NCBI GenBank assembly: GCA_019694475.1 | Contig: JAIBBX010000007.1 | Span: forward strand, 9,225-73,224 | Source: Parachlamydiales bacterium | Lineage (GTDB): Bacteria; Chlamydiota; Chlamydiia; Chlamydiales; SM23-39 | DNA: 64,000 nucleotides | Direction: 5' to 3' | Part shown: positions 2,114 to 41,367 of the stretch, one piece after another | Layout of the letters: each line of letters begins with the position of its first letter | Numbering within the stretch: position 1 is the first letter of the stretch | Position numbers and translations under genes: made by a program | The notes under the pieces: generated by a model | What the model was told of the DNA's origin: nothing | The model's database searches: none | Seen by the model: the letters and a program-made list of their open reading frames with translations, nothing else

Positions 2114-2195
2114 AAAGAGGAACTATACTCGTTCCAGTTGAATATTCTCAATTTTTGGCGCTTTGACGCTGGTCAAAATTGAGAAGATTCCTTTC

Positions 2196-9200: not shown

Positions 9201-12200
9201 AAGCAGCGGATCCAGTCAAAGTGACGGCCCTTAAAAAGGTGATGTCGTCGTTTGTCGTTGTGATGTCGCCTGCTGTGCTTACCAGTCCCGCTCCATTTTG
9301 AGTGAATGCCCCATCGAGGGTCATATCTGCCGCCGCAGCGATCGAGAGGAGGCCGCTGTTTGTAATGGTGACAGGCCCTGCACTCGTCGTCGTCACTGTG
9401 TTATTGAAGGTGAATGCGCCGCCGGTTAGGCTAACCCCTCCAGCTGCATTCGTGTCGACAGTTCCCGTAAAAGTCGCCGAACCCGTTCCGTTTTGGGTAA
9501 TGGTTGCAGCTCGTACTTGGGGAGCCGTGACGGTCGACGCCGTGTTGATGACGAGGTTTCCGATCCGCGTAGTTCCTCCGATATTGCCACCAAACGAGAT
9601 CATCCCTGTATCGGTTGTGAGAGTCAGGTCTCCTGCGCCGTCGATTACATTCGAGAAGGTAATGCCCGCCGCACCGGGAGTCGTTTGAGTCGTCAAAACG
9701 GTGGAGCCGGATAATGTTACGGCTCTCAAAATGCTGATCGCATCGTTTGTTGTAGAAATGCTGCCAGCGAGCGTCACAGGGCCCGCTCCGTTTTGAGTAA
9801 AGGGTCCGTCAAGAGTCATCGTAGAGGCAAGATTGATTGTTAAAGTGCCACTGTTTGTGACGGTGACCGGGCCTCCTGCTGTCGTGTTGACCGGTGCGGA
9901 GAATGTGACGTTAGTTCCGATAACAGAAATCCCCGGCGCCGTATTGGTGTCAATCGCACCGCTGAAAGTAGTGGTAGCGGAGCCGGAAAGTTGCGTGATC
10001 GAGGCGGCCGTTGTTTGTCCTATAAGAATAGTGGCTCCATTCGTAATAGTGAGAACTCCCAGCCTTGTAACGAAGCCAACGGGTCCAAAAAGGGAAATAT
10101 TGCCGGTTCCTGCTGTGAGAGTTAAGTCGTATCCAACTCCTCCTCTAATGTTGCTTGAGAAGGTGATACTGCCAGCTCCGGCCCCAGTGTTGATGGTAAC
10201 CGGCGCAGTCAAAGTAGTAGTCCTTAAGACGCTCACGTTGTCGTTTGTAGTGGTGATATTGGCCCCGAGAAACACGCCTGCCAAACCATTCTGATTGAAC
10301 GGACCATCTAAGGTTATGGGAGCGCTAGAGGGAATTGTAAGAGTTCCGCTGTTTGTGATCGTCATGGGGCCGCCGGCTGCTGTCACAACAGGGCTGTTGA
10401 TAGTGATCACTGTTCCTGTGAGAGAGATCCCTCCGACAAGGGAGGTATCGAGGGAATTGCCGACCCCGCCGAAGGTCGAGGTGCCGGTGCCGGTTGTCTG
10501 AGTGATTGTATTGGCGCGGATGCCGTTGGTTGTGACATCAAATGCACTGCTGATCGTAAATGTTCCAAGCCGATTGGTGGCGCCAGCAGTACTGCTCACG
10601 ATGATATTTCCTGTCCCAGCTGTCAGGGTTAGGTTCCTTCCTGCGGCGTTGCCGTCTATCAGACCGGTAGCTGGAGCGTTCGGTAAAAAGGAAATATTTC
10701 CCGCTCCGGCACCTGTAGAGAGGGTTACAGTAGCGGCTTGAAGGCTCACATCGCCATTGAAGGTGATATTACTATTGGTCGTTGTGATGCTGGCTCCGGC
10801 AAGCTGAATCCCAGTGTTAGCCGTCGGAGATGTGTACGTCAGCGCACCTGTAATTGCTGCTGTAGAGTTCTGTCTTACGACTGTTCCTGTTGCCGAAAGA
10901 GAGCCAAGGGCCTGAGTATTGCCAATCGCCCCGGTAAATAGAATGGTTCCCGTCCCGGATACTACGCTTAAGTTCCGCGTATTGGCCGCGCTGTCGGCGT
11001 TGAGTGTGGTAGAAACTGTGACACTTGCTCCCGCACCCGAGAAAGTCGTATCGAGAACGGCGTTCGTCGTCGCGGAGCCTCCTGTAAAATTATCGATCAC
11101 GAGCGCGGCCGGTATCAAAATGGGAGTGCTGCTTGTATAAATACCCGCGGCCAGCCTGACAGAGCCACCTGATATGGAAATTGCGTCTGTATACACATCG
11201 CCACGGATGAGGCTTGATCCGGTCGTCGTCAGGTTTACATTTGCGAATTCCCCGCCGCCCATCGAACCAACCCGACCGAACTCGATGGTTCCCGCGCCTG
11301 TGGTGGCTAAACTCAAAGTATGCCCCATTCCAGTTCCCCGGATCGGGCTGAAGAGGATACTAAAGGCTCCCGAAAAATTTGTGAAAAATACGTTCGTTCC
11401 TGTCACGGAAAAATTCTTTCCTGCCGCCAGTAGAACCGATCCGGTGCCGCCGTTTGTGACCGTATCGAAAATGATTTGCCCCCCAGTGCTGCTAACAGTC
11501 GAAAGGGCTCCTGGAGGATTGATGTTGATATTGAACGCACCCCCTGAAGTGGCATTCCTGTAGGTTGCCGCCCCTGTACAGCGAGTGAAATTGCCGTTCA
11601 AGTTGATTGTATCGCGGGCTGTAACGGTTATTGCGCTGGCGCCAGCGGCCGCCATCGTTCCGATATCAGCAAAAGAGATCGTAGCTCCTGTGATGGTTAA
11701 ATTCCCCAGCCGGTTGACCGCCCCGATCGCCCCCGGGACTGTGACCGTTCCCGTCCCGCCTGTGATTGTGAGAGCCTTGCCGATCACATCTCCGTCGATC
11801 GTATTGCCAAAAGTAATATCTCCCGCCCCGGCTCCTGATGAAATGCTAATCGGGGTGGAGGCGCGCGATTGGACGTCTCCCGTCAGCGTAATAGCGGTGT
11901 TCGCCGTGATGATGTTATCAAAAAGGCGGATCCCCGTTGCTGGAGTCGTAGCGGTATAGCTGATGGGCCCGGTAATCGATACGAGCGCTCTTTGGTCGAC
12001 GATAGCGCCGCTCGCCGTGAAGCTCGTCAGTCCCGAGGCGGCATTGTTGAGGAGTACGGTTCCCGTCCCCGCCGTGAGAGTCAGGTTGCGCGTTCCGGAG
12101 AAAACACCAATGGTGCCAAGGGTGATGTCGGCCCCTGCTCCCGAATTGACTGTGCTCACGAAGCTGTTTGTTGTGGCGGGGCCTCCGGTGTAGGTTGCAA

Positions 12201-14517: not shown

Positions 14518-16260
14518 TTATAAAAACCCTACGCTTACTTTGAAATAATAAAACGGGTTAGATGTTTTTTCTTTGGTAGTGATCGGGAATCCCACATCGA
14601 GAGAAAAATTCACGTTCCAAGGGCCAAAGACCCGTATGCCAGGCCCAGCGCCTGTCAGGTATATCGTTCTCGCCTGATCTTCTCCGCCTCCGTTCAGGAA
14701 GACGCCGCCCGTGTCGACAAATGCAAGAAGTTGAACGAATTCCTTCCATGACTTTTTCATTCCAGGAACCTTCTGGTCGACAAGCCCCGGGATCGGCGTT
14801 CTCAGCTCAAGGTTTGCAAAATAGCCATTATCTCCGAGAGCCGCTGCAAGTTCATAGCCGCGAACGGAATCAAAGCCCCCGATATAGATCTGCTCGGCAA
14901 GAGGGAGTTTATAAAACGTTCCTTGGCCTGAAAAATTGAAGAGGAAGAAGCTGTTTTTCGGAAGTTTTTGAATTCGTTTATAATCGAGATTGAAGATGGT
15001 AAATCTACCTCCTGCGCCTTCTCGGCTGCAGCGCGGATCGACCGCTTTCGAGCCTCCGAGAAAATGGGGGACCCCCACATAGAGAGTTGCGGATCCGATG
15101 TTGCGGCCCCAAAAGCGGTCGTTCCCATCTAAATCGATTCCTGCACCAAAAATTCTTAAACGGTCGACAGAAGCCGTTAGATCCAGAGCGAAGTTGAAGA
15201 GGTTTTTGTAATCAAACGTCGCATATACGTTGCAGTCCAGTTGTTTTTTTCTGACGGCGGCATGGGTCAGTTTTAATTCGGCGACATGAGAGTTGCCCTT
15301 AAGTCCCAAATCTCTTAAAGTTCCCACATTGAAATAAGCGAAAAGATACGAAATCTCGCCTCTAGTTCCTCTTGCGTTCAAAGGGAAATTGTAAACCAGG
15401 TCTGTGAAAGTAAGATCCGCTGGAGGAAATCCGAGCACTTCGGCCACACTAAACTTATCACCATAAACCAAACAATTGCCCCAATCAAAACGAGCCCCAG
15501 TCCGGCTGTCTGTTGTGATGAAAGATCCGTAGTTATTGTAGTCCCAATAGAGATGGATCGGCCGGGAATCTTTCACCTTCAGAATGATGTCCGCGCAGCC
15601 AAATAATGAGCTTTTCTTCAATAGCAGAGCTGCGTTCAAATCCATATTTTCGTTCAAAAGCAAAAGGGCCCTTAAAAGAGTTTCATAATGGACCGGTTTA
15701 TTCTGAAAATCGGTGAAATATCTTCGGACGAACGAATCGCTGTAAAACCGGTTTGATTCAATGCAGATCTCCCCGAGACATCCTTCGAGAATGGCGACCT
15801 TCAGCGTCTTATTTTCAATACTCTGAGCAGGAACATAGGCCCGCGCTAAGATGTAGCCTTGCGCTGCATATTTTGCTTTGATTGCCAAAAGAAGCGTTTC
15901 AATCTCGTGCATGGACATTTCACAGGGGACGTGACAAGACGCAAGCTCTTCAAGCGAGCAGTCAGAGAAGATCGTGTTTCCGGAAAAGGAGATCTTTTCT
16001 ATATAGACTTTCTTCCCCTTCGGTAATGAGAGAGTTTCGCTCGGAACTTCTACATCGAGAAGAGGGATTTCACGGTCAGGGGAAATTTCTTGAGCTCCCT
16101 CATATTGTTTTTCCAATTCCCTCTCGATGATCCCAGCCGAGGAAGATGGAGGGCCGACAAATACTGAGTAGAGGGAAAAGGGAAGGAGCGCGAAAATAAA
16201 TAAAGGAACGAATCTTAAAATTCGTATTTTCAGGAGAATGTTCGTCCAATATTTAATCAA
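14518..16260 (-). CDS. Two-partner-secretion outer-membrane transporter (TpsB, ShlB/FhaC/HecB family), copy 1
   Basis: 580 aa with an N-terminal hydrophobic signal. It has a POTRA-like segment (IEKISFSGNTIFS...YAAQGYILARAYVPAQSIENKTLKVAILEGCLGEI), the barrel motif IGGFDSVRGYE, and C-terminal KVSVGFL. Confidence 0.85.
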   Translation of the reverse strand: MIKYWTNILLKIRILRFVPLFIFALLPFSLYSVFVGPPSSSAGIIERELEKQYEGAQEISPDREIPLLDVEVPSETLSLPKGKKVYIEKISFSGNTIFSDCSLEELASCHVPCEMSMHEIETLLLAIKAKYAAQGYILARAYVPAQSIENKTLKVAILEGCLGEICIESNRFYSDSFVRRYFTDFQNKPVHYETLLRALLLLNENMDLNAALLLKKSSLFGCADIILKVKDSRPIHLYWDYNNYGSFITTDSRTGARFDWGNCLVYGDKFSVAEVLGFPPADLTFTDLVYNFPLNARGTRGEISYLFAYFNVGTLRDLGLKGNSHVAELKLTHAAVRKKQLDCNVYATFDYKNLFNFALDLTASVDRLRIFGAGIDLDGNDRFWGRNIGSATLYVGVPHFLGGSKAVDPRCSREGAGGRFTIFNLDYKRIQKLPKNSFFLFNFSGQGTFYKLPLAEQIYIGGFDSVRGYELAAALGDNGYFANLELRTPIPGLVDQKVPGMKKSWKEFVQLLAFVDTGGVFLNGGGEDQARTIYLTGAGPGIRVFGPWNVNFSLDVGFPITTKEKTSNPFYYFKVSVGFL

Positions 16261-29927: not shown

Positions 29928-30880
29928 GAACCAAATATCCACCGATTGAACCCAACCGAACTGGGTATATCGAAGTGCCTGGCCATGAATTATACTGGGA
30001 AGAGAGCGGCAACCCGCGCGGCGTGCCGGTTATTTTCCTACATGGCGGTCCAGGTTCTGGAACAGAAGCAAGCCACCGAAGTTATTTTGATCCTTCTCTC
30101 TACCGAATTGTACTCATGGATCAAAGAGGCTGCGGCAAAAGCAAGCCCCATTCGAGTTTACAAGACAATACGACTTGGCATTTGGTTGAAGACATTGAAA
30201 AACTGAGAGAACACCTCAAAATCGAAAAATGGGTTGTGTTTGGCGGATCTTGGGGAAGCACTCTTTCTTTGGCTTATGCAGAAACACATCCCAGCAAAGT
30301 CCTGGCTCTCGTTTTACGCGGTATATTTCTCGGCCGGCCTAAAGAACTGAGATGGTTTTATCAATTTGGCGCGCATCATATTTTCCCAGATGAATGGGAA
30401 AAGTATCTCGATCCAATCCCTGCAAATGAACGGGGGGATCTCATGCAAGCTTATTACCGGAGGCTCACTTCGCCAGATCCTGCAATCCGCAAACGGGCTG
30501 CTTCTGCTTGGTCGGGGTGGGAAGGTGCTGCGTTAAAACTCATTTTCGATCCGAATCTCTTTTTGCAATTTACTGAAGATAGCCATGCAGATGCCTTAGC
30601 TCGGGTGGAGTGCCATTACTTTGTGAACAACTGCTTTTTCAAAACCGACAATTGGCTTATCGAGCATGCTCACGCAATCAAAAATATTCCCGGAATCATC
30701 GTGCAAGGACGCTACGATATCGTTTGCCCTATGGAGAGCGCTTGGGAATTGCATAAAGCTTGGCCGTCTGCTGAACTTGAGATCATTAAAGATGCAGGCC
30801 ACGCGGCAAGCGAGCCGGGTATCACGGATGCGCTGGTGCGGGCAACGGATTATTTTGGACAATTCTTCCGGTCTTCGTAG
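29924..30880 (+). CDS. pip: Proline iminopeptidase (alpha/beta hydrolase)
   Basis: It has HGGPGSG, the nucleophile elbow GGSWGSTL, and C-terminal DAGHAA. Length is 318 aa. Confidence 0.9.
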   Translation: MRTKYPPIEPNRTGYIEVPGHELYWEESGNPRGVPVIFLHGGPGSGTEASHRSYFDPSLYRIVLMDQRGCGKSKPHSSLQDNTTWHLVEDIEKLREHLKIEKWVVFGGSWGSTLSLAYAETHPSKVLALVLRGIFLGRPKELRWFYQFGAHHIFPDEWEKYLDPIPANERGDLMQAYYRRLTSPDPAIRKRAASAWSGWEGAALKLIFDPNLFLQFTEDSHADALARVECHYFVNNCFFKTDNWLIEHAHAIKNIPGIIVQGRYDIVCPMESAWELHKAWPSAELEIIKDAGHAASEPGITDALVRATDYFGQFFRSS

Positions 30881-31823
30881 GAATGAAAGTTCCTGTATCT
30901 ACGAACTTTCGCAAATGACCTGTCGCAGGATCAAACCACAGTTCGCTTTTTGCGGTATTGTAAGGCCAGCCTTTCATTGAAGTCAGCTCGGCTTTCAGTA
31001 GTCTCCCCATTCCGTCCACATCTTCCAATCCCAGTTTGGTCAGTTTGAATTTCATGACAAAAGGAGTTGGTTCAAGCCACCTTAATATCCAGCCAATCAA
31101 TGGAGGATAATCGGGAACCACGCCGTAAAATTCTAGTTCCTGGTCATTGGATAAAATAAACGGTCTGAATCCAATTGCCCTTTGTTGGATCCAAGGCCTT
31201 CCATCTTGAGGCAAGTCTAAATAGGTTCTGACGGGCGGGTTTTGCCCTTCGGCAATCGAAACTTCAACTTGCGCGGCGCAATCCATATTGCGTCGTACAA
31301 GATCCACTTTTTTGCCGCCGTATTGATAATGAAGCTCGCGCAAACTCAGATTAGGGTTGTAAAGCGAAGAAGTAGAAAATTCGAGAGCGTTCTGCGTTGC
31401 GACAAGAACATCGGGAAATGTTTCGACTGTCCAAGCTGTTCGGATTGGATTATTGTTAATTGTTTCAATATATCCAAAATGCTCGACAGGTCCTTCAGGG
31501 ATTCGGCCATCTGGTCTGTGAACGATGATTTCAGGAGGCGGAAGAATCTCTTCAATCTCATCGATTTCGGGGCAGAAAGGATCGGCCAATTTTTGCGGGC
31601 TGCCAAACGTTTGCAGGGCAATCCATATGATCGAATTGACAAAGGGAAGCATCAGGGCGGTGCCCTCGATAAGATAAACAATTCTTTCAGTTAAAGAGAG
31701 GGGGTTTTGCTCTAAAGATCGATCAACCCCTTTCCAAAAAAGATCTAAATACTCGCAGCCTTGGGCATAAGGCTCAAGGACATAGGTGTAAACCCATTGT
31801 CTGTCAACAGGAAAGATTTGCAT
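30822..31823 (-). CDS. Hypothetical protein with an Inc-like hydrophobic hairpin (333 aa)
   Basis: A bilobed hydrophobic segment, IVYLIEGTALMLPFVNSIIWIALQTF, is present. I recognised no family. Its 3' end overlaps the pip 3' end by 59 nt. Confidence 0.5.
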   Translation of the reverse strand: MQIFPVDRQWVYTYVLEPYAQGCEYLDLFWKGVDRSLEQNPLSLTERIVYLIEGTALMLPFVNSIIWIALQTFGSPQKLADPFCPEIDEIEEILPPPEIIVHRPDGRIPEGPVEHFGYIETINNNPIRTAWTVETFPDVLVATQNALEFSTSSLYNPNLSLRELHYQYGGKKVDLVRRNMDCAAQVEVSIAEGQNPPVRTYLDLPQDGRPWIQQRAIGFRPFILSNDQELEFYGVVPDYPPLIGWILRWLEPTPFVMKFKLTKLGLEDVDGMGRLLKAELTSMKGWPYNTAKSELWFDPATGHLRKFVDTGTFIPTKTGRIVQNNPLPAPAHP

Positions 31824-31850: not shown

Positions 31851-32522
31851 CTAAAAAGGAACCACTTTTCTTTGCGATAATTCAGCTTTGATTTGATCGA
31901 CAGACTGGAAATGGATGCCATCTATTCCAAGCGCCCTTGCGGCCTCTATGTTTTCCAGCTTGTCGTCTATGAAAATGATTTGCTCGGGAGGAAGTCCGAT
32001 CCGTTCGATGAGGATTGCATAAGCTTCGGGATCTGGCTTTTTGCACATGATTTCACAAGAAAGAATGCAAGGATCGAACGGGTCGTAGAATCCAAATTCT
32101 CGAATGAGGTTGGCAAGCCGCTGATCGATATTGGAAAAGAGAGCTACCTGAGTGTTCGTTTCTTTGATCTGACTGACAAGTTCAAACATGCGGGGATTTG
32201 CTCCGAGATTGTCTTTCATGACAGTTTTGAACGATTTTGCCCAATTTTCGGGAAGCTGGATTTCATTTTCTTCCGCATATTTAAGCCAAAACTCTTCGTC
32301 GGTCTTGCCCATTTTGACCGCTTGTCTTTTGAGAAGATTTACTTGCTCGAATTCTTCGCTGTTTAAGGCGAAGGTATCTTGCAGGAATTGAACGATTGCA
32401 GCTTTATTCGGCTCATGTGTGAGCACTCCGCCGAAATCAAAGACAACCGCAACTTGTTTTTGAGTCATCTCATTCCCAAATAACAGAATATTGCAAAGGA
32501 GAGTAAGGAAAATCATCTTCAT
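31851..32522 (-). CDS. HAD-superfamily hydrolase
   Basis: Motif I is VVFDFGGVLT and motif IV is FIDDKLENIEAARALG. The start is ambiguous: ATG 32522 would add a signal-like peptide, while ATG 32468 gives a cytoplasmic form. Confidence 0.75.
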   Translation of the reverse strand: MKMIFLTLLCNILLFGNEMTQKQVAVVFDFGGVLTHEPNKAAIVQFLQDTFALNSEEFEQVNLLKRQAVKMGKTDEEFWLKYAEENEIQLPENWAKSFKTVMKDNLGANPRMFELVSQIKETNTQVALFSNIDQRLANLIREFGFYDPFDPCILSCEIMCKKPDPEAYAILIERIGLPPEQIIFIDDKLENIEAARALGIDGIHFQSVDQIKAELSQRKVVPF

Positions 32523-32607
32523 AAATCACCGCTCCAATTATAGCATGGACTATAATTTCCCGCTTCTCATAAAATATTCGGTCTCGAAAAATTTAAAGGA
32601 TATATTT

Positions 32608-33978
32608 ATGAATGTTACGTTACGCGATGTTGTGCAACTCTACCAATTTTTTTGCGAAAATGCTGACTTTAACAATGCTGATAATGTTAAAAACGCAGTC
32701 GTCGAATTAAGCCAAGTGAAAAACGAAAATGGGATTGATCAAAATAGAGAGCTGATTCGAGAGGCGAATCGATGTATGGCTGTGGCTGTGAATGCGATCA
32801 AACATTCTTATCGAGAGCAAGCAACGAGCGACTTATTGAAACGCATTGTCGGAATTTCAAATGAAAATCGAGGATTTGCAGAGTTGATGAAACATGTTGG
32901 GGCGGTTGCGAGAAAATATTTCCCGAACTCAACACATGTAGAGCCTGTTTTAAGCGGAAAAATTTTTAGGGGATGCACAACGTTATATAGCCTTGTGATG
33001 AAAAACCCTGATTATCAATACACCCATCCTTTTATCATGCAATTCCCTCAGGGCTTAATAAACCTTCTTAAGTCATTTGACGGAGGAGTTCCTCGCAACA
33101 TAGGAATCCATGCATTGAAGGGATTAGTGGTGAAATTGGAAAAACATCGAAAGGATGTATTGGATTTAGACCCAGATAATGCAGATCTCCAGTTTTTCGT
33201 GGATCAAATGATTGGCCTCAAAGGAAATGATGACGCTCAAGACCAATTTTATGAGCAAATCAAGAGCTGCATGAAGGCAGAGGCGATGGGTCTTGAATGC
33301 AGTATTTTGGAACATATTGATACGGAAGCCGCCAAACTTGTGGATCGTGAATCTGTAGAAGAAGGCGTTTCAGGACTCGCCCAGATGCGCGCTCAAGGTT
33401 TTGCTCATCAGAAAAACCATGGCGGAGGAGCTTTTATCTCTGGTCGATATGGTCTGAGAGGAAATAGCTCAGGACAGTTCTTTGGGGATGGCATTCTGGA
33501 TAATGGCAGCTCTCAGAAACTCAATGCATTTTCTGATGTGAGTTTGGATGCTGCAGATGAAAGCCTTCGAGAAAGACTGAAACAATTCGGAAGAAAAATT
33601 GTAGAGAATTTTTATCAGAGAGGTGAATTGCTCCAATATCGATTACACGTGATTGGCAAGGTGCTTAAAGAAATTCCTCTCGATGATCCTATCGATCAGG
33701 CTCGGATCACTGTGGGGGCGCTAATCAGGCATAAACTGCAAGAATATCCAAAGAAAAATAATCTTATGTTTGATCTGGATATAGCTGAGAAGGAAAGATT
33801 GGCGCCTCAGTTTGCCAAGGAGATTATCTTGTACGGCATTCAAAATCGCATTTTTTCAGTCCAGCAGGGAGCTTACCTGATTAGAGCGTATCGTTTAAAT
33901 GCAGATCCAGATATTGTTCGTGCGAGCTTAGAAGCGATTCAAAGTCTAGCCCCCCAAGATGAAGAAAAAAAGGAATAA
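32608..33978 (+). CDS. Hypothetical protein (about 456 aa)
   Basis: AAAGGA lies 7 nt before the ATG at 32608 (MNVTLRDVV...). The ORF track start at 32491 overlaps the divergent HAD gene. I recognised no family. Confidence 0.5.
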   Translation: MNVTLRDVVQLYQFFCENADFNNADNVKNAVVELSQVKNENGIDQNRELIREANRCMAVAVNAIKHSYREQATSDLLKRIVGISNENRGFAELMKHVGAVARKYFPNSTHVEPVLSGKIFRGCTTLYSLVMKNPDYQYTHPFIMQFPQGLINLLKSFDGGVPRNIGIHALKGLVVKLEKHRKDVLDLDPDNADLQFFVDQMIGLKGNDDAQDQFYEQIKSCMKAEAMGLECSILEHIDTEAAKLVDRESVEEGVSGLAQMRAQGFAHQKNHGGGAFISGRYGLRGNSSGQFFGDGILDNGSSQKLNAFSDVSLDAADESLRERLKQFGRKIVENFYQRGELLQYRLHVIGKVLKEIPLDDPIDQARITVGALIRHKLQEYPKKNNLMFDLDIAEKERLAPQFAKEIILYGIQNRIFSVQQGAYLIRAYRLNADPDIVRASLEAIQSLAPQDEEKKE

Positions 33979-33981
33979 AAG

Positions 33982-34317
33982 ATGGAGCCGATTGCATTTG
34001 CAGATTTCCAAAAAGTAGACATTCGGGTTGGAACGATCTTGGCAGTCCATGATTTTCCGGAAGCCCGAAAGCCGGCTTTTAAACTGGAGATCGATTTTGG
34101 AGATCTCGGTGTAAAACGCTCCTCTGCTCAAATCACGCACCACTACCGCAAAGAAGATCTCGTTGGAAGACAGGTGATTGCGGTTGTGAATTTTCCTCCG
34201 AAGCAGATCGGGAAATTCTTTTCCGAGGTGTTGACTTTGGGCTTGCCAGATGCAGAGGGACACGTCGTCCTTCTGCAGCCTACCCTTGGCGTCCCAAACG
34301 GGTCGCGCTTATTCTGA
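33982..34317 (+). CDS. csaA: tRNA-binding domain protein (CsaA/YgjH type)
   Basis: FADFQKVDIRVGTILAVHDFPEARKPAFKLEIDFG...QVIAVVNFPPKQIG is the typical OB-fold tRNA-binding sequence. Confidence 0.8.
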   Translation: MEPIAFADFQKVDIRVGTILAVHDFPEARKPAFKLEIDFGDLGVKRSSAQITHHYRKEDLVGRQVIAVVNFPPKQIGKFFSEVLTLGLPDAEGHVVLLQPTLGVPNGSRLF

Positions 34318-37164
34318 TTTAGGAATGAAGTGGATCAGGGCTGTCCAAGTTTTTGGATGGTTGATGAATTGGAGTTTGCGACGGCTTATCGAATAGGTTC
34401 GTTTTTCGTCTTCGCCCAGTCTTTCGATTGTAAATCTTTCACACCAGCCCAGATATTCATCTGCAGGATGCATTCCTTCAAGGAATTCATCGACGATGAG
34501 GGTTGCGCTTTGTAAAGCTGCGCTCAGACAGTCCTTATAAGAGATTTTGAAAGGGACGGCTGGAAGAAGCTGCGTCGGAAAATAGGTGCACCAAATTTCC
34601 TCTAGCGAATCGATGTATAGAGTTCCTGCAACAAAGAATGCGCCATTGAATGTCGCGAATGGGCTGATCGAATTGAGCTGCTGCCTTGCGGTATAAATGG
34701 AAATCGGAAATTGATTTGCATTGATAAAGCTTGTCGAATCAATCACGAATCGTCCGGGGCCAATTTGAGGGGGAGCGGGGAATTGATCGTCTACGACGAG
34801 TGTAATTGGACCTGCCGTGGTCGTTGCAGAAGAGTTGTTGATGAAGGAAATATCAACCCCGGCTTTAACGAAAATTCCAGTCGTTGCAGTGAGCGTTGTC
34901 GGGTCGAAGAAGATCGATTGAGGCGCCAGCATGGTCAAAAAGCCATTGGTTCCAGCAAAGGTTGAATCGATCGCGTTGATTGCGCCAGATACCGATTCGA
35001 TATAGGTATCAGCCAAACCTGAGATCGTACCCAAATTTGTCGAAATATTTCCCTGAGAGATCGCTGTTGTGTTTGCAGCTGAAAGGATCGAAGCGTTTCC
35101 TCCAAGAGCGGTTCCGGACATTGTGAGCGAATTTGCTGAGAAATAAACAGGTCCTGAAAATCCACGAATGACAGCGCCGCAATTAGCAGAAACTCCCGGA
35201 GAACCAGATCGCAAAGTAGCGCTGCCATTGACGATGATCCGTGTATCTGACCCACCTACAAGCGCAGCGAGAGTAAATACTCCAGGATTGGCTGATGGAG
35301 AACCTCCTTGCATGAAGAGATCTCCTCCTACTTGGACATTCAGTGGGCCTCCTCCTGAAGAAAAGAAATTAGTTCCTATAAATGCAACGGAAAGACTGTT
35401 TACAGGATTGACCGCTGTAGAAATTAAAGTTAAATCGCCATTGACAGAGAAATTCAAGGCGCCTCCTCCTGCAGCGAAAATGCTCGCGTTAGAATTCTCT
35501 CCAGGGCCTCCAAATAGATAAGCGCTACCTGTGAGCGTCATATTGATATCGCCGGTACTTATTGGAAGAACTTGTGCAGATTGAAAACTCCCGTTTCCAT
35601 TACCCAAGAGAGATTGTCTTGCATCAATGATGAGGTTGCGGGCTTGGACAAATATGGAGCCGCCATAAAAAGTATTCGCGAAATCTTTTCCTGCGACGAC
35701 ATTCGCGCTGCCGAGAAGTGTCATTGAATTTCCGGAACTGGCCTGAATGTAGAAGTCGCCATCCAAAATAAAATGCAAATCGCCTCTAAAGGTTTGAATT
35801 TCAATATTGCTTGGAGAGCCGGGTGTTGAATTCACGACCATTTGAACCCCTTTGGTCTCAATGATGAAGTCCCCGCTGGAAGTTGAATCTAACGAGTGCA
35901 ATTGACTTTTAAACCCAGGCTGAGAGCTCATATAGAGGACGCCATTTGGTGCGTTCACGGCGATTGAAGTTCCCGTGATGGGGCCTCCAGTAATTTCGAC
36001 TACAGCTGATTGAGAAGGGGTGGCTTGTATTCTGACATTGCCATTTGCCGAATTGAATTCGAGAGTTCCTCCAGCAGTGGGTTTGATATCGGCATTGATG
36101 ATCAATTCGTTGGTAGCGCTCAAAGTGAGTTTGGTCGGCATTGCCCATGTAACGGGCGAAGAAACGGTGATTTGTCCATTGCCGCCTGATCCTCCAGCTG
36201 TTGTGATGAAGACATCGGTCATGCCAAGAAGAGTGCCGAGTTGCGTTGCATCGACAGTGGCGGTCGGCCCTGGCGGGTCGTAAACTGAAGTGAGGGGAGG
36301 CGCTGGCATTCCATAGGTGCCAATGTCAATTTGCGATGGATCTAGAAGTAATTTTCCAGTTTTACCGTATGGCGCGCGCGTATCGGCAAGGCCGGCCATA
36401 TTTAGATGTTTAGGCGAAGAAACGTCGATGAATCCGCCATCTCCGTTGAGAGAGCCTCCTGTTGCGCTAATCAAACCGTAGACGGCTGTATGTTCATGGC
36501 TCCAGAGGATGACTTCTCCGCCATTGCCAGCATGCTCTGCATTGGCTGAAAGAGTCGCTTGAGGGCCGAGCCATATTCTTTGAGCTTTCGGAAAGTCCTC
36601 TTTGCTTCCGATGAAGATGCGTCCTCCGCCAGATGGGCAGGAAACATCTATCTGTGCTTTTCCGAGAATTGCAATTTCTTCTGCTGCAAGAACGATTTCG
36701 CCTTTCGGACATCGGATCTTTCCTTCCCACTCGATCTTGCTACCGCGATGTTCTAGGAAAGCGATTTTGTGCGAGGATTTGTAAACATCCGTATTTAGTG
36801 GCAAGGCCGAAGCGATAAATGAGGCTGTATCAATGCGAGCCTCTTTTCCGACAATGAGTCCATTTGGATTGATTAAAACGACTTGTCCATTCGATTGGAT
36901 TCTTCCAAATAGAGCGCTGGGCTCAGATGTTAGGACCCGATTCAATGCGATGGAAGAGGCGTCCTTTTGGGAAAAAATCACCTGCTCATTTGCATCGAGG
37001 GAAAAATTTTGCCAATCGATCCAAATATTTTCATCCGAGCGGATAGAAACTTCGCTGTCTGCATATTCAATTTGCCCGAGTCCTTGCACGATTTGGCCGT
37101 TTTGCGGCAATGCGCAAAGAAAGACGGGCAGGACTGGAAAAAGACAGCGAAGCCAAGCATTCAT
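34309..37164 (-). CDS. TpsA-type exoprotein paralogue (951 aa) with no adjacent TpsB
   Basis: It has a signal peptide (MNAWLRCLFPVLPVFLCALP) and a TPS domain (FSQKDASSIALNRV...VVLINPNGLIVG...NGDGGFIDVSS...GKLLLDPSQIDIG). Its C-terminal domain is homologous to that of the 812-aa TpsA. Confidence 0.8.
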   Translation of the reverse strand: MNAWLRCLFPVLPVFLCALPQNGQIVQGLGQIEYADSEVSIRSDENIWIDWQNFSLDANEQVIFSQKDASSIALNRVLTSEPSALFGRIQSNGQVVLINPNGLIVGKEARIDTASFIASALPLNTDVYKSSHKIAFLEHRGSKIEWEGKIRCPKGEIVLAAEEIAILGKAQIDVSCPSGGGRIFIGSKEDFPKAQRIWLGPQATLSANAEHAGNGGEVILWSHEHTAVYGLISATGGSLNGDGGFIDVSSPKHLNMAGLADTRAPYGKTGKLLLDPSQIDIGTYGMPAPPLTSVYDPPGPTATVDATQLGTLLGMTDVFITTAGGSGGNGQITVSSPVTWAMPTKLTLSATNELIINADIKPTAGGTLEFNSANGNVRIQATPSQSAVVEITGGPITGTSIAVNAPNGVLYMSSQPGFKSQLHSLDSTSSGDFIIETKGVQMVVNSTPGSPSNIEIQTFRGDLHFILDGDFYIQASSGNSMTLLGSANVVAGKDFANTFYGGSIFVQARNLIIDARQSLLGNGNGSFQSAQVLPISTGDINMTLTGSAYLFGGPGENSNASIFAAGGGALNFSVNGDLTLISTAVNPVNSLSVAFIGTNFFSSGGGPLNVQVGGDLFMQGGSPSANPGVFTLAALVGGSDTRIIVNGSATLRSGSPGVSANCGAVIRGFSGPVYFSANSLTMSGTALGGNASILSAANTTAISQGNISTNLGTISGLADTYIESVSGAINAIDSTFAGTNGFLTMLAPQSIFFDPTTLTATTGIFVKAGVDISFINNSSATTTAGPITLVVDDQFPAPPQIGPGRFVIDSTSFINANQFPISIYTARQQLNSISPFATFNGAFFVAGTLYIDSLEEIWCTYFPTQLLPAVPFKISYKDCLSAALQSATLIVDEFLEGMHPADEYLGWCERFTIERLGEDEKRTYSISRRKLQFINHPKTWTALIHFIPKSE

Positions 37165-37192
37165 CTAAATTATTTTTATCAAATTTGATGAA

Positions 37193-37975
37193 TTATTCCA
37201 AACGGGAAAGTCCCTTCCTCCTTGTTTTTTCAAACATCATTTTGAAGATCGATACCGAAGCGGTCAGATAAATGATATTAAGCGCTATGCTGATCCAAAA
37301 ATAATGTGCAGGGAAAGTATCGGTCGTCAGAATCGATCTCATCCCTTCAAAGATGTAGGTCGTCGGCATGCAAAGCGCAATCGATTGCGCCCATCCGGGA
37401 AGAACATCGAGAGGATAAAAAACCGAACTGAATGGAGCAAATAGGAATGCAATCATCCACGCAAACATTTCCACTTTGCTTCCCCAATAGATGATCATGC
37501 TGGAAGAGAGAAATGAAAGCGACCAGCCGAAAACAAGCAGGGATGCAGCAAATGGAATAAATGCCCAGCCCACCGTAAACACGTTGAGCGAAAAGAGTAG
37601 GTAGACCATAAGGGCGCCAAACGTGATGGTGATGACGAGTTTGCAAAGAGAGACGAGAATCAGTCCTGCAATCCATTCGGAGATTTTTAGAGGCGTGGAG
37701 AAAAGATTGACTAGGTTGCGGTGCCAAAACTCTTGCAAAAGGCTTACCGAAATATCCACTGAGCCGCGCCAAGCGATTTGCCAGAAGATTAGGCCCGTCA
37801 TCAAGACGAGAGGGAGCGATTCAACATGGCTTTGCCTTTGGATCCAGTAGGATGAAAGGCCCCAAAGCAAAATGTCGACGAGCGGCCAGTAGAAGAGATC
37901 GGAGAGCTGATGGATCCCTTTTTTGGCAACAAAGAAGTACCGTAAGAATACGCCGTAAATCCGGTAGAAGTTCAT
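37193..37975 (-). CDS. ABC-2 type transporter permease
   Basis: 260 aa with about 6 TM segments. It overlaps the upstream ATPase gene by 4 nt. Confidence 0.7.
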   Translation of the reverse strand: MNFYRIYGVFLRYFFVAKKGIHQLSDLFYWPLVDILLWGLSSYWIQRQSHVESLPLVLMTGLIFWQIAWRGSVDISVSLLQEFWHRNLVNLFSTPLKISEWIAGLILVSLCKLVITITFGALMVYLLFSLNVFTVGWAFIPFAASLLVFGWSLSFLSSSMIIYWGSKVEMFAWMIAFLFAPFSSVFYPLDVLPGWAQSIALCMPTTYIFEGMRSILTTDTFPAHYFWISIALNIIYLTASVSIFKMMFEKTRRKGLSRLE

Positions 37976-38892
37976 AGTGTTTTCTCTGCAATTTTAAGGA
38001 AGTAGTCCTCTAAAGAGGGTTCCTGGATTTGGATGCTGGCGTAAGAGACGCCTGCTTGCATCAGCTCATTGAGAAAACCAGGGATTATTTTCTCGTCCAA
38101 GGAGAGAGAAATGGCCCGGTGTTCAAGCTGATAGGTCAGTTTGTGTTTTTCTGCGAGGGCAACAGTTCGCTTCATTCCGTCGGTGATGGTGAGGCGGAGC
38201 TGGTAGAGCGAAACGCTTCGCGCAAGGTTTTCTGGCAAGTCGTCTGCGATGATTTTTCCTTTTTTAAGGAAGATAGTTCGATCGCAAAGTTCGGCCACTT
38301 CTTCCATTTTGTGGGAGGTAAACAAAATGGAAAGCCCTGTACGATCCCTTTCTTCTAAGAGGAATTTGCACACCTCTTGAGAAACATCGGGGTCGAGCGA
38401 TGCGGTAGGCTCGTCGAGGAGCACTACTTTCGGATTCGTGAAGAAAGCTTTCACCAACATGAGACGGGTGATTTGTCCTGCAGAGAGCGAGGAAATGGGA
38501 GAATGTTTTTTATCCATAATCCCAAACCGCTCCAGCAATGGATCGGTCCGTTTTTCGAAATCGGTGATTCCATAGTAGAGTCCAAAACATTTTAGGTTTT
38601 CCCGTACAGTTAGGATGTACGGAAGGCTTGTGTAGGTGCTCGCAAACGATACCGATTGCAAAACTTCGGATCGATGCTGGAAGAAGTCTTTTCCGAAATA
38701 GAGAATGGAGCCCGATGTTGCAGTCAAAGTGCCTAGCAGCATCTGGATCGTGGTTGTTTTCCCCGAACCATTTGGTCCAAGGAGTCCGAGAATTTCTCCC
38801 GGACTCAAGTCGAAGGAAATGCCGTCTACTGCGGTGTAGGGCTTTTTTTTGCCATACACTTTAGTGAGGTTTTTTACGCTTAAATTATACAC
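37972..38892 (-). CDS. ABC transporter ATP-binding protein (306 aa, with a C-terminal extension)
   Basis: Walker A is GLLGPNGSGKTT, the signature is LSAGQ, and Walker B is VVLLDEPT. Confidence 0.85.
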   Translation of the reverse strand: MYNLSVKNLTKVYGKKKPYTAVDGISFDLSPGEILGLLGPNGSGKTTTIQMLLGTLTATSGSILYFGKDFFQHRSEVLQSVSFASTYTSLPYILTVRENLKCFGLYYGITDFEKRTDPLLERFGIMDKKHSPISSLSAGQITRLMLVKAFFTNPKVVLLDEPTASLDPDVSQEVCKFLLEERDRTGLSILFTSHKMEEVAELCDRTIFLKKGKIIADDLPENLARSVSLYQLRLTITDGMKRTVALAEKHKLTYQLEHRAISLSLDEKIIPGFLNELMQAGVSYASIQIQEPSLEDYFLKIAEKTL

Positions 38893-39664
38893 AGTCTAAT
38901 CTCCTTTGGAGCCTGCGGATTGCATCCCATGCAAAAAATGCGGTGAAAGCAGAAAGCGCGCTGAAACTGGTCCAGAATGGGAGATATCCCTCCTGGCCGA
39001 GAGTGGCTGCGCGCATCCCTTCCATCACATAGAGGAGGGGGTTGATTAAATGAAAGTAACCCAAAGTTGGATACAGCTTTGCAATAGCGGCGTAAGAATA
39101 CCACCAGCCCCCAAAACTGTACATTGGGTTGATGACACGCACGAAAAGGTGCGTCAAGCTGCTCATGTTTTTCAGGATCGCTGAGAGCCAAAGAGCAAAA
39201 AATCCGAAAAATAGATTGCTCAAAATGAAAATCAGCGGCAACTCAATGAGATTGAACTTCGTTAACGAAAATTCGTTGAAGAGAAGCATTTTCCCAAGAG
39301 GGAACATGAGAAGGCTCAAGAGCGATGAAAGGATCGCCCAAGAAATGCCAAAATAGGAAAAAACCATCCATGAAGGAATTGGAAGGCTCAAGAGATAAAG
39401 AATCGACTTGTCTCCCTCGATATCGGCAAGCATGACGCTGACTTTTCCCATTACCTCAAAAAAACCAAATCCAGCAATGACTCCGACGAGCAGGAAGGAG
39501 CCATAATCTGATTCAAGTCCATAAGAGGGAAGAAAATATCCGAAAATCGTGATCGTTGTGAACATGAGGAGAGAAGTGTTGATCAACTTCCCCCAAAATT
39601 CTCCCTTGAAGACCCGAAGGTCTCGGCAAATCAAATGATAAACGGTAAGGCTATTTTGCAACAT
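38885..39664 (-). CDS. ABC-2 type transporter permease
   Basis: 259 aa polytopic protein. It overlaps the neighbouring genes by 14 nt and 8 nt. Confidence 0.7.
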   Translation of the reverse strand: MLQNSLTVYHLICRDLRVFKGEFWGKLINTSLLMFTTITIFGYFLPSYGLESDYGSFLLVGVIAGFGFFEVMGKVSVMLADIEGDKSILYLLSLPIPSWMVFSYFGISWAILSSLLSLLMFPLGKMLLFNEFSLTKFNLIELPLIFILSNLFFGFFALWLSAILKNMSSLTHLFVRVINPMYSFGGWWYSYAAIAKLYPTLGYFHLINPLLYVMEGMRAATLGQEGYLPFWTSFSALSAFTAFFAWDAIRRLQRRLDCV

Positions 39665-40394
39665 AATCTGACTCTTGCAAAAGTTTGATGAATACGTCTT
39701 CCAGACGGTGCATTTGATGCAATTTTTTCAAATTGTCTGGAGTGTCGATCGTTTTAACAGTGCCTGCATCGATGATGCAGACTCGGTCCGAAAGATATTC
39801 AGCTTCATCGAGATAGTGGGTCGTGAGGAGGATCGTCGAACCGCTTTTCTTCAGTTCCCGGATCTGATCCCAAAGCTGGCGGCGGATGTGCGGATCGAGG
39901 CCCACAGTCGGTTCATCGAGGATGATCAATTTCGGCGCATGCAAAAGCGTTCTCGCGATGAGAAAGCGCTGTTTGTAGCCGCCTGAAAGCACCGATGCTT
40001 TTTCGTTCGCATATTCATGCAGATGGAATTGATCCATCAGCTCTTTGGTGCGAGCGCGGATGAGCTCCGGTTTCATTCTTTGGTAGCGGCCGGCAAAAAG
40101 GAGATTTTCCTCCAACGTCAGAGAAAGATCTAGATTCGGTTTTTGCGGGCAAAATCCCACAATGCCTCGGTATGAGACGATGTCTTCATAGATCGATTTG
40201 CCTTCAAAAAGGATGTCGCCGGATGTTGGGGGATGAAGCCCCGCGATGATTGAAGAAAGGGTTGTTTTGCCTGCTCCGTTCACACCGAGAAGGCCGAAAA
40301 TTTCCCCTGACTTTAACTCAAAAGAGACGCCTTTAAGCGCCGCCTTTGTCTGATAATGTTTCTTCACTGACTGAACTTGGATCAGTGTCTTCAT
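39651..40394 (-). CDS. ABC transporter ATP-binding protein (247 aa)
   Basis: Walker A is GLLGVNGAGKTT, the signature is LSGGYKQR, and Walker B is LIILDEPT. Confidence 0.85.
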   Translation of the reverse strand: MKTLIQVQSVKKHYQTKAALKGVSFELKSGEIFGLLGVNGAGKTTLSSIIAGLHPPTSGDILFEGKSIYEDIVSYRGIVGFCPQKPNLDLSLTLEENLLFAGRYQRMKPELIRARTKELMDQFHLHEYANEKASVLSGGYKQRFLIARTLLHAPKLIILDEPTVGLDPHIRRQLWDQIRELKKSGSTILLTTHYLDEAEYLSDRVCIIDAGTVKTIDTPDNLKKLHQMHRLEDVFIKLLQESDYVAK

Positions 40395-40420
40395 AGAAAC
40401 TCGGGATATATATATTATGC

Positions 40421-40438
40421 CCTGAAGAATTCTTCAGG
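40421..40438. promoter_or_regulatory. 18-bp perfect palindrome in a divergent promoter region (candidate operator)
   Basis: cctgaagaattcttcagg lies 27 nt upstream of the ABC operon start (40394), in the gap before the divergent gene at 40558. Confidence 0.3.
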
Positions 40439-40557
40439 TGGATGGCGGACCCCTTCTAGAGAGGCTGGCAAATGATGAGGAAAGTGTTAGATTTTCATGT
40501 TGGACTCTAAACTTGTATTAAGTATAATCGAACTCCAAACTCAAGGTCAATATTTTT

Positions 40558-41367
40558 ATGAATTGGGCAGATGTTGAGAAATCGTTTTCGAGGGCGGTGG
40601 CATTATCATTTTCAAAAAAAAAGATGATGCTAACTTTTCCTGTTTTAGTTTTGTGCGGGATCCTTGTTGTTTTTTGCCGGGCTGTTGCATTTGAAGCAAG
40701 CGACTGGATCGCTATGAGCTTGGCTTTCCTGCCCATTTTGCTCTCTTCCGGAGTTCTTCTTGCTTTGGGCGTGCTCCTCATCCGGATTCACATCCATGAA
40801 GTGAAGCAGCTCCATTTAGGTTTTAGGCGTCTCATTGCGGGATCAGTCGATCTCATCATGGGGACCTCCTACTTGGCAATTCCTCCCATTTTGGCCTACT
40901 TGCTCCTTTGGATTGCGCTCGGTCTCTTCTTTCTCCTTCGGGAAATTCCTGGCATTGGCGATTTTTTCTCTGTGGTACTAGCTTTTGGCCCTTTCCTGCT
41001 CATTTTTGGATCGTTGCTCCTTTGTCTTTTCAATCTGGGCCTTCTCTTTTTCGTAGCTCCTGCGGCGGCTTTTCAGCCGTTTAAAAGAACTTCTTTGGCA
41101 AAGAGGGTGGTGGGACTTTTTCAAGGCCGCATCCTTAGCAGCATCAGCCTTTTCCTCCTGGCTCTGGCTCCCATCTTGCTTGTTGTAGGCCTGCTCACTT
41201 TATCGGCTCTTCTCGCAAATGCCTCTCCTGAAAAACCGCTCTCAATTGCGATGTCTTGGTTTTTCACCATGGTCCCTTTTGCAGCAGTCTTGACCCCGGC
41301 TGTCATCTTTTTCTTTAATTTCGCAGCTGAGAGCTATCAGCTTCTGCATCCCAAAACAAGCCCATGA
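40558..41367 (+). CDS. Polytopic membrane protein of unknown function
   Basis: 269 aa with about 7 hydrophobic segments. The stop overlaps the next ATG (ATGA). Confidence 0.55.
   Translation: MNWADVEKSFSRAVALSFSKKKMMLTFPVLVLCGILVVFCRAVAFEASDWIAMSLAFLPILLSSGVLLALGVLLIRIHIHEVKQLHLGFRRLIAGSVDLIMGTSYLAIPPILAYLLLWIALGLFFLLREIPGIGDFFSVVLAFGPFLLIFGSLLLCLFNLGLLFFVAPAAAFQPFKRTSLAKRVVGLFQGRILSSISLFLLALAPILLVVGLLTLSALLANASPEKPLSIAMSWFFTMVPFAAVLTPAVIFFFNFAAESYQLLHPKTSP

Follow-up and report, generated by a model that had tools for sequence, protein, structure and literature searches.

Does a two-partner-secretion exoprotein that is encoded directly behind two ABC-2 exporter pairs, and away from any TpsB, belong to a functional module with those exporters, or is the linkage coincidental? 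The question is raised by a locus in a 64,000-nucleotide stretch of DNA (the window) whose source organism is an uncultured environmental chlamydia. The initial annotation left two readings side by side: that the exoprotein is secreted in trans by TpsB1 or TpsB2, the two TpsBs of the window, and its position is a coincidence, or that a component exported by the ABC-2 pairs works together with the exoprotein fibre. We find that the exoprotein, here called TpsA3, is very probably a lineage-specific member of an expanded TPS exoprotein family that occupies a variable slot 3′ of an old housekeeping ABC-2 operon, a juxtaposition without functional meaning.

Organization of the locus

The ORF list, Pfam and NCBIfam agree on five co-oriented genes, as had been proposed, arranged as two ATPase/permease pairs followed by a TpsA-like gene, and all five are intact in the ORF list. 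The features of the locus are as follows.

39651-40394, minus strand: ABC ATPase 1 (atp1), DrrA/NodI-like class, 247 aa (PF00005, 119 bits)
38885-39664, minus strand: ABC-2 permease 1 (perm1), 259 aa (PF01061, 32.9 bits)
37972-38892, minus strand: ABC ATPase 2 (atp2), 306 aa, GTG start (PF00005, 111 bits; weak PF13732 match)
37193-37975, minus strand: ABC-2 permease 2 (perm2), 260 aa (PF01061, 40.6 bits)
37165-37192, minus strand: A+T-rich gap of 28 nt between perm2 and TpsA3
34309-37164, minus strand: TpsA3, 951-aa orphan two-partner-secretion exoprotein (TPS domain in Pfam and NCBIfam)
40521-40550, minus strand: sigma-70-like promoter of the ABC operon, TTGACC-18-TATACT (promoter scan)
31851-32522: HAD hydrolase (Pfam), in the variable segment between o333 and perm2; on the minus strand
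32491-33978, plus strand: 495-aa ORF (o495) of no Pfam or NCBIfam family, in the same variable segment

Successive genes of the cluster overlap by 14, 8 and 4 nt, and 28 nt separate perm2 from TpsA3, exactly as first described. The closest TpsBs are TpsB1 (14518-16260), about 18 kb away, and TpsB2 (2196-3860), about 30 kb away. A search with PF03865 gave no match within 18 kb of TpsA3 and none on the contig besides these two, which bears out the claim that no TpsB is adjacent.

Two unrelated transporters of the DrrA/ABCA-like class

ABC_tran in both ATPases and ABC2_membrane in both permeases score above the Pfam cut-offs. The best NCBIfam model for ATPase 1 is TIGR01188 (drrA), at 228.9 bits below its cut-off of 312.45; the scores of the two pairs with this model are 228.9 and 197.7 bits, and TIGR01247 scores 24.3 against a cut-off of 223. 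Neither pair reaches a curated NCBIfam cut-off, so no named equivalog can be assigned. ATPase 2 has a weak DrrA-type C-terminal domain (PF13732), and its nearest solved sequences are the second nucleotide-binding domain (NBD2) of ABCA1 and ABCA4 and the Thermotoga structure 4yer; a search of the PDB gave no sequence relative for permease 2. A Wzt-type C-terminal carbohydrate-binding domain was found by Pfam in neither ATPase, and ATPase 1 has no C-terminal extension. Of the placements that had been suggested for the ATPases (DrrA, NatA or Wzt-like), the best models correspond to the DrrA-like one.

In their architecture the pairs resemble the DrrAB, NodIJ, YadGH and ABCA-type exporters, with a separate ABC_tran/Walker ATPase and a six-helix-type ABC2_membrane permease encoded by overlapping genes, with drrA and drrB as best models and with the ABCA1/ABCA4 domains as nearest solved NBDs; they differ in falling below all curated family cut-offs and in having no Wzt-type C-terminal domain. 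The tandem order seen in the initial annotation is correct, but the pairs are two unrelated transporters. The two ATPases share 33% identity and the two permeases have no significant similarity, and we reject a tandem duplication on these grounds. Judged by these comparisons and by their separate distributions (below), atp1-perm1 and atp2-perm2 are separate two-gene transporters in the DrrA/ABCA-like class, each conserved independently of the other.

The ABC pairs in related genomes

The atp1-perm1 pair is a conserved two-gene unit in 8 of 41 relatives, and perm2 is present in 19 of 41, at 55-83% identity. Relatives of perm2 number more than 581 and extend across Chlamydiales, Verrucomicrobia and Planctomycetes. 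We examined 80 named perm2 loci from Parachlamydiaceae, Rhabdochlamydiaceae and Chlamydiales and then from Verrucomicrobia and Planctomycetes. In 77 of the 80 loci kept, an atp2 homologue adjoins perm2 on the same strand, and two of the other three are cut by a contig end. This distribution identifies atp2-perm2 as an ancient two-gene unit, far older than its juxtaposition with TpsA3.

No TpsA-family match lies within 10 kb of perm2 in the 80 named loci, no TpsA flanks perm2 in 18 fetched loci of relatives, and none was found near the atp1-perm1 unit in six further relatives. The sets of 18 and 80 loci partly overlap, about 100 related loci having been fetched overall; the relatives are incomplete MAGs, and absence means not found among those searched. 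Conservation of the ABC-ABC-TpsA order in related genomes, which had been proposed as a check, was accordingly seen in none of the related loci examined.

The 18 loci share a genus backbone, o386-o318-o333-perm2-atp2-o269-DAO-MBL-HflX, and the gene downstream of perm2 varies by genome (o333, aconitase, amine oxidase, autotransporter, MreB or PDH-E1). In four same-genus relatives o333 directly adjoins perm2, and other relatives carry different cargo in the slot. From these neighbourhoods, the slot 3′ of perm2 is variable among relatives, with a TpsA occupant only here. On either side of the 5.3-kb variable segment we saw no convincing repeats, direct or inverted, the window contains no tRNA gene, and o269 and o333, like o495, have no Pfam or NCBIfam match.

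TpsA3 is an intact two-partner-secretion exoprotein

The TPS domain of TpsA3 matches PF05860 (76.7 bits; cut-off 33.5) and TIGR01901 (71.1 bits; cut-off 29.1) and carries the motifs LNRV...LINPNGLIVG, including NPNG; an alignment of 49 sequences shows no variation at N75, N99 and G102. Its N-terminus, MNAWLRCLFPVLPVFLCALP, is hydrophobic with one arginine. The AlphaFold model is all-beta (pLDDT 81.7), and a beta-helix is confidently predicted, including the conserved C-terminal region of the family, a stretch of about 250 residues that is common to the 29 chlamydial paralogues and is not described by Pfam. Foldseek places EtpA (8vbb, E = 1.3e-16), HxuA (4rt6, 1.8e-10) and the HMW1 secretion domain (2odl) among the top matches, and sequence identity to solved TpsA proteins is only 12-18%. 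TpsA3 thus shares with the type Vb proteins HMW1, EtpA and HxuA an N-terminal TPS domain with NPNG and a single, here predicted, right-handed beta-helix of about 900-1000 residues. It differs from them in having no adjacent TpsB, no HMW1C/EtpC-type glycosyltransferase, and the C-terminal region of the chlamydial paralogues.

At E < 1e-70, none of 40 relatives has an orthologue of TpsA3. Its closest homologue among 5.8 billion proteins is 41% identical, and the gene for it adjoins a phosphoribosyltransferase gene and another TpsA, with no ABC neighbour.

TpsA3 within a large TpsA/TpsB family

The 2.29-Mb genome encodes 29 TpsA paralogues and 15 TpsBs. The TpsA genes occupy about 5% of it, and both families together about 6%. 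As no TpsB lies within 3 kb of 17 of the 29 TpsA genes, the transporter-less state is the majority one; the description of TpsA3 as transporter-less is true but does not set it apart. Three TpsBs, in turn, have no nearby TpsA. In a poorly resolved tree of TPS domains, TpsA3 falls among the orphans, outside the clade that contains 10 of the 11 TpsB-linked genes.

Certain TpsBs accept several TpsAs as substrates, and secretion in trans is documented in other bacteria, shared transporters being exemplified by Bordetella FhaS with FhaC and by Neisseria meningitidis TpsA2 with promiscuous TpsBs (reviewed in PMC5422565). Like these proteins, TpsA3 has its gene at a distance from any TpsB, and a transporter with more than one substrate presumably secretes it in trans. 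The difference is one of scale, with 17 orphans and 15 TpsBs in a 2.3-Mb genome of obligate-intracellular type, where trans-secretion would be the counterpart of the documented cases.

Could TpsA3 instead be a stranded, non-secreted or decaying copy, whose TpsB and function have been lost and whose position is irrelevant? The missing neighbour and the lack of an orthologue in the 40 relatives would fit, and the family is not free of decay, since a stop codon breaks the frame of one other TpsA paralogue. However, the 951-codon frame of TpsA3 is intact, all conserved TPS-domain residues are present, and the predicted beta-helix is confident through to the C-terminal region. Furthermore, the 16 other orphans are intact, the three unpaired TpsBs are at hand, and trans-secretion has the precedents given above. 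We consider such decay improbable. From its intact TPS domain and the composition of the genome, the most likely route for TpsA3 is secretion in trans by a TpsB among the 15 that are encoded.

Which TpsB would serve is a separate matter. That it is specifically TpsB1 or TpsB2, and not one of the other 13, is suggested by their being nearest to TpsA3 and, for the divergent TpsB1, by its linked giant TpsA, which groups with orphan-class TPS domains. The tree behind that grouping is poorly resolved, however, and the three TpsBs elsewhere without an adjacent TpsA are equally good candidates. Only a small number of relatives have a TpsB1-type gene, and the relative G014, whose TpsA family is similarly expanded (about 50 candidates), has none; we dropped TpsB1 as a general transporter of the orphan class on these two grounds. 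Since the genome has 15 TpsBs, the partner of TpsA3 need not be either of the two in the window, and we regard the specific assignment as rather doubtful. The first of the original readings is thus supported in its trans-secretion and in its coincidental linkage, for which the lack of a conserved order speaks, and only doubtfully in its choice of transporter.

The perm2-TpsA3 junction and the case for a module

A sequence scan detected no promoter-like or terminator-like site in 37165-37192. Of the two signs against a link that the initial annotation had named, an order conserved nowhere else is seen in the loci examined, and a signal that separates the ABC genes from the TpsA gene is not. The RNA fold of the junction is no better than that of shuffles (z = 0.05), and the window holds no Rfam family. 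The length of the gap is ordinary, the genome median being 21 nt and 55% of gaps between co-oriented neighbours being 30 nt or shorter. Upstream, the 40521-40550 promoter lies inside a conserved divergent promoter region, the same sequence block being kept upstream of atp1 in one relative (G008) and upstream of atp2 in another (G012). TpsA3 is likely to be co-transcribed by read-through from the ABC operon, as far as such signals can indicate. A true operon could also look like this, with co-orientation, a short gap and no detected promoter or terminator, and TpsA3 may be co-expressed with the pumps in this strain.

These same features, the five co-oriented genes with their overlaps, the 28-nt gap and the signal-free junction, are what speaks for a real TpsA/ABC-2 module, in which the genes would be co-regulated because the TpsA3 fibre is modified or held in place by a lipid, glycan or anchor that one or both pairs export. 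The names of the nearest solved relatives add that pumps of the ABCA/DrrA class often move lipids. Several observations speak against a module. No locus examined in a related genome repeats the ABC-TpsA order, and the ABC pairs predate the juxtaposition by far and are distributed much more widely. The closest homologue of TpsA3 lies beside no ABC gene, neither ATPase has the Wzt-type domain, and for the other 27 testable TpsA paralogues no ABC ATPase is found within three genes. Furthermore, the adjacency is expected by chance: with the 28 testable TpsA genes placed at random, 71% of trials brought at least one of them to within two genes of an ABC ATPase. The pairing looks like chance since TpsA3 is a strain-specific newcomer behind two old, unrelated pumps. 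We judge such a module extremely unlikely. The second original reading, in which the pairs export a component that works with the fibre, runs counter to the same absence of the order and to the far greater age of atp2-perm2. The TPS review cited above (PMC5422565) makes no mention of ABC transporters.

A narrower version would have a TpsA captured at the end of the ABC-2 operon in this one lineage, co-expressed with it and acquiring a working link, for example through a lipid that the pumps export and that anchors the fibre or modifies it. This we hold to be very unlikely as well; if true, it would be a very young, strain-specific TpsA/ABC-2 module.

If TpsA3 is instead, as we propose, an orphan exoprotein in a variable slot, its transcript would arise by read-through from the ABC operon promoter, and the protein would be exported by Sec via its hydrophobic N-terminus. 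Its intact TPS domain would then be recognised by a TpsB encoded elsewhere, among the 15 of the genome, and TpsA3 would be shown on the surface or set free as a fibre, a beta-helix some 950 residues long that probably acts as an adhesin. The same would apply to the 16 other orphan paralogues. The ABC-2 pumps would export a small or lipid-like substrate independently of TpsA3.

Implications for the TpsA family of chlamydiae

The proposed TpsA/ABC-2 secretion module is not supported. The locus then comprises an ordinary orphan, from a chlamydial TpsA family that is large and unstudied, beside two ordinary ABC-2 pumps. Our literature search found no paper on chlamydial two-partner secretion. The family-wide picture is not particular to the TpsA3 locus. 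The 17 orphan TpsAs may form a distinct class that relies on a small number of generalist TpsBs, which would make a many-to-few type Vb network with a role like that of the Pmp autotransporters in Chlamydia; we consider such a network somewhat more likely than a young strain-specific TpsA/ABC-2 module. The chlamydial Pmp proteins are type Va autotransporters with a fused beta-barrel. They too form a large paralogous family of beta-helix surface proteins, evolve fast and account for several per cent of a small chlamydial genome, whereas the TpsA proteins are of type Vb with a separate TpsB, and the two are likened here by description, not by homology. With 29 TpsAs and 15 TpsBs, and with the orphans apart from the TpsB-linked genes in the tree, this family may be of interest for work on host attachment by environmental chlamydiae.

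Results

TpsA3 Is a Bona Fide TpsA behind Two Different Transporters

The five co-oriented minus-strand frames of the initial annotation, with overlaps of 14, 8 and 4 nt and a gap of 28 nt, match our ORF list exactly.

Genes of the locus
39651-40394, minus strand, ABC ATPase 1 (atp1), 247 aa; ABC_tran (Pfam/NCBIfam)
38885-39664, minus strand, ABC-2 permease 1 (perm1), 259 aa; ABC2_membrane
37972-38892, minus strand, ABC ATPase 2 (atp2), 306 aa, GTG start; ABC_tran
37193-37975, minus strand, ABC-2 permease 2 (perm2), 260 aa; ABC2_membrane
34309-37164, minus strand, TpsA3, 951 aa; TPS secretion domain PF05860 (76.7 bits), TIGR01901 (71.1 bits)

TpsA3 has a short, hydrophobic N terminus and the LNRV and NPNG motifs, and an alignment of 49 sequences shows its N75, N99 and G102 to be invariant. 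The AlphaFold model (pLDDT 81.7, pTM 0.70) is an unbroken β-helix over approximately residues 24-830, followed by a confidently modeled C-terminal region with a final helix at 880-898. In Foldseek searches of the PDB, the model matched EtpA (E 1.3e-16), HxuA (1.8e-10 for full-length 4rt6 and 7.7e-08 for the secretion domain 4i84) and the HMW1 secretion domain (6.4e-07), proteins that TpsA3 resembles in size and fold class. Together, the TPS motifs, the model and the structural matches identify TpsA3 as a bona fide TpsA.

With 33% identity between the ATPases and no significant similarity between the permeases, the tandem encodes two distinct transporters, and an origin by duplication was rejected. 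The drrA subfamily is the top model for both ATPases, ahead of NodI, GldA and RbbA, with all scores under the curated cut-offs; a Wzt-type carbohydrate-binding domain was found in neither ATPase with Pfam. Among solved sequences, ATPase 2 lies closest to Thermotoga 4yer and to the second nucleotide-binding domain of each of ABCA1 and ABCA4.

The Pump Genes Are Conserved without a TpsA

Permease 2 occurs in 19 of 41 related genomes (55-83% identity), in several families of the order, and permease 1 in just 8 of the 41. The surroundings of perm2 were fetched at 18 loci. The same-genus backbone runs o386, o318, o333, perm2 and atp2, and then a divergent o269, a DAO-type oxidoreductase, a metallo-β-lactamase-fold protein and an HflX-type GTPase; o333 directly follows perm2 in four genomes (G012, G004, G003 and G013). 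This ORF (30822-31823 in the window), the ancestral neighbor of perm2, has no assigned family, and its rate of evolution is far above that of its neighbors (compared genome by genome, 120-402 bits vs 440-490 for perm2). Elsewhere, the slot after perm2 is occupied differently.

Slot after perm2 in other related genomes
G001: aconitase
G008: amine oxidase, 420-aa ORF, HAD hydrolase
G010: HAD hydrolase and convergent autotransporter
G017: MreB
G011: pyruvate dehydrogenase E1

The G010 autotransporter (L026 6234-8531; 765 aa, PF03797) is a type V surface protein of a different type from TpsA. HMMs for the TpsA N and C termini matched no ORF across the 18 loci, among which the atp1-perm1-atp2-perm2 tandem recurs in G008 only.

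A search of GTDB species genomes with an alignment of perm2 returned more than 581 relatives. The 80 loci kept, a set partly overlapping the 18, range from chlamydiae (55-77% identity) down to Planctomycetes and Verrucomicrobia (35-46%); a same-strand atp2 homolog adjoins perm2 in 77 (two of the remaining three end at a contig edge), and none has a TpsA-family match within 10 kb. TpsA is also absent from six further atp1-perm1 loci.

TpsA3 itself has no match better than E 1e-70 in 40 relatives, and its best match among the searched genomes is a paralog in its own genome (35% identity). The closest homolog in 5.8 billion public proteins, P0003 (41% identity, 98% of the length aligned), lies on an 8.8-kb Logan contig from SRR21360038 (L041), flanked by a phosphoribosyltransferase gene and, in tandem with it (1329-8817), by a further TpsA-family gene that codes for at least 1441 aa; this contig holds neither an ABC gene nor a TpsB. 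Named TpsA3 homologs come from MAGs of Chlamydiae, Chlamydiales, Parachlamydiales and Anoxychlamydiales, and permease 2 has its closest named relatives in Parachlamydiaceae, Rhabdochlamydiaceae and Chlamydiales MAGs. With TpsA missing from all 18, 80 and 6 related ABC loci and no ABC gene near P0003, the TpsA/ABC-2 functional module suggested by the initial annotation is unsupported, and a conserved ABC-ABC-TpsA order was found in none of the fetched loci.

The proximity is also compatible with chance. Among 28 TpsA genes in a greedy set of 1921 genes, TpsA3 is the sole one with an ABC ATPase at most two genes away, and for the next nearest the distance is four genes; random placement of 28 genes put at least one so close in 71% of 20,000 trials. 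For the stricter case of a co-oriented gene immediately downstream of a permease, we estimate a chance of roughly 0.2 from random placement and a 63% co-orientation rate. Gaps between co-oriented neighbors in the source genome have a median of 21 nt and are 30 nt or less in 55% of cases, values somewhat shortened by the use of longest-ORF starts.

TpsA3 Is Likely Transcribed from the Pump Promoter

A promoter or terminator separating TpsA3 from the ABC genes, which would have argued against the module, was not seen: a consensus scan of the 28-nt gap and its surroundings found no such site, and RNA folding at the perm2-TpsA3 junction is no better than in shuffles (z = 0.05). The same scan placed a sigma-70-like promoter (TTGACC-18-TATACT) at 40550-40521, upstream of atp1. 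The block containing it, which reaches into the start of the divergent o269 gene, is strongly conserved and precedes atp1 in G008 and atp2 in G012 (window 40395-40570; L029 6390-6580; L023 10680-10860), which marks it as the pump operon's ancestral promoter region. Since it is retained both where atp1 comes first in the operon (source genome, G008) and where atp2 does (G012), atp1-perm1 was gained or lost precisely between promoter and atp2. The conserved pump promoter and the signal-free gap make read-through into TpsA3 likely, as judged from sequence. o333 has retained its own promoter-like element, in G012 as in the window.

The ABC operon carries a perfect 18-nt palindrome, CCTGAAGAATTCTTCAGG (40421-40438), in its 5′ leader, after the promoter and ahead of the atp1 start, as a possible operator or small hairpin; G008 has a weaker CCTGA...TCAGG form and G012 none.

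Orphan TpsA Genes Are the Majority in the Genome

The nearest TpsB genes were correctly placed about 18 kb and 30 kb from TpsA3, and PF03865 matches no other gene on the contig.

TPS genes elsewhere in the window
14518-16260, TpsB (TpsB1)
6292-14505, giant TpsA-family member, 2737 aa
3857-6295, TpsA, 812 aa
2196-3860, TpsB (TpsB2)

The 2737-aa protein has no Pfam match and belongs to the TpsA family by its N- and C-terminal matches (phmmer and family HMMs). A second TpsB1-TpsA2-TpsB2 arrangement, without the giant gene, lies at C9:462025-468048, and the two TpsB1 copies are 62% identical.

The source genome, that of an environmental chlamydia (2.29 Mb, 10 contigs, 45% G+C; the window is on contig 10), encodes 29 TpsA-family genes, found with phmmer and two family-built HMMs and sharing an N-terminal TPS domain and a conserved C-terminal region, and 15 TpsB genes. 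The TpsA genes sum to ~38,000 codons (~5% of the genome), and both families together to ~6% (e.g., C5:268489-271209, C8:226673-230965, C9:358489-362703). Seventeen TpsA genes have no TpsB inside 3 kb, so that the "transporter-less" state is that of the majority; three TpsBs have no TpsA inside 3 kb (C9:208208-209875, C9:241867-243672, C9:316331-317941). One paralog beside a TpsB (C9:404620-407313) is split by a TAA stop into ORFs of 649 and 239 aa, probably a pseudogene or a sequencing error.

A quick maximum-likelihood tree built from the TPS domains gathers 10 of 11 TpsB-linked TpsA genes in one clade (SH-aLRT 88), with the 17 orphans, TpsA3 included, outside it; the tree is otherwise poorly resolved. 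The paired/orphan label changes three times on this tree vs nine in shuffles, none of 500 shuffles being as low. The divergent TpsB1 type as transporter of the orphan class fails, as G014 has a comparably expanded TpsA family without it.

Discussion

Coincidental linkage with secretion in trans, the other possibility raised by the initial annotation, is very probably the best explanation of the locus. An ancient pump operon has at its 3′ end a variable slot, which TpsA3 occupies here, most simply as a strain-specific arrival. Its expected route of secretion is in trans, through a TpsB from another locus. According to a TPS review that makes no mention of ABC transporters (PMC5422565), there are TpsBs with more than one TpsA substrate as well as promiscuous ones. 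Both components of the locus, an orphan TpsA and a pair of ABC-2 exporters, are of known kinds.
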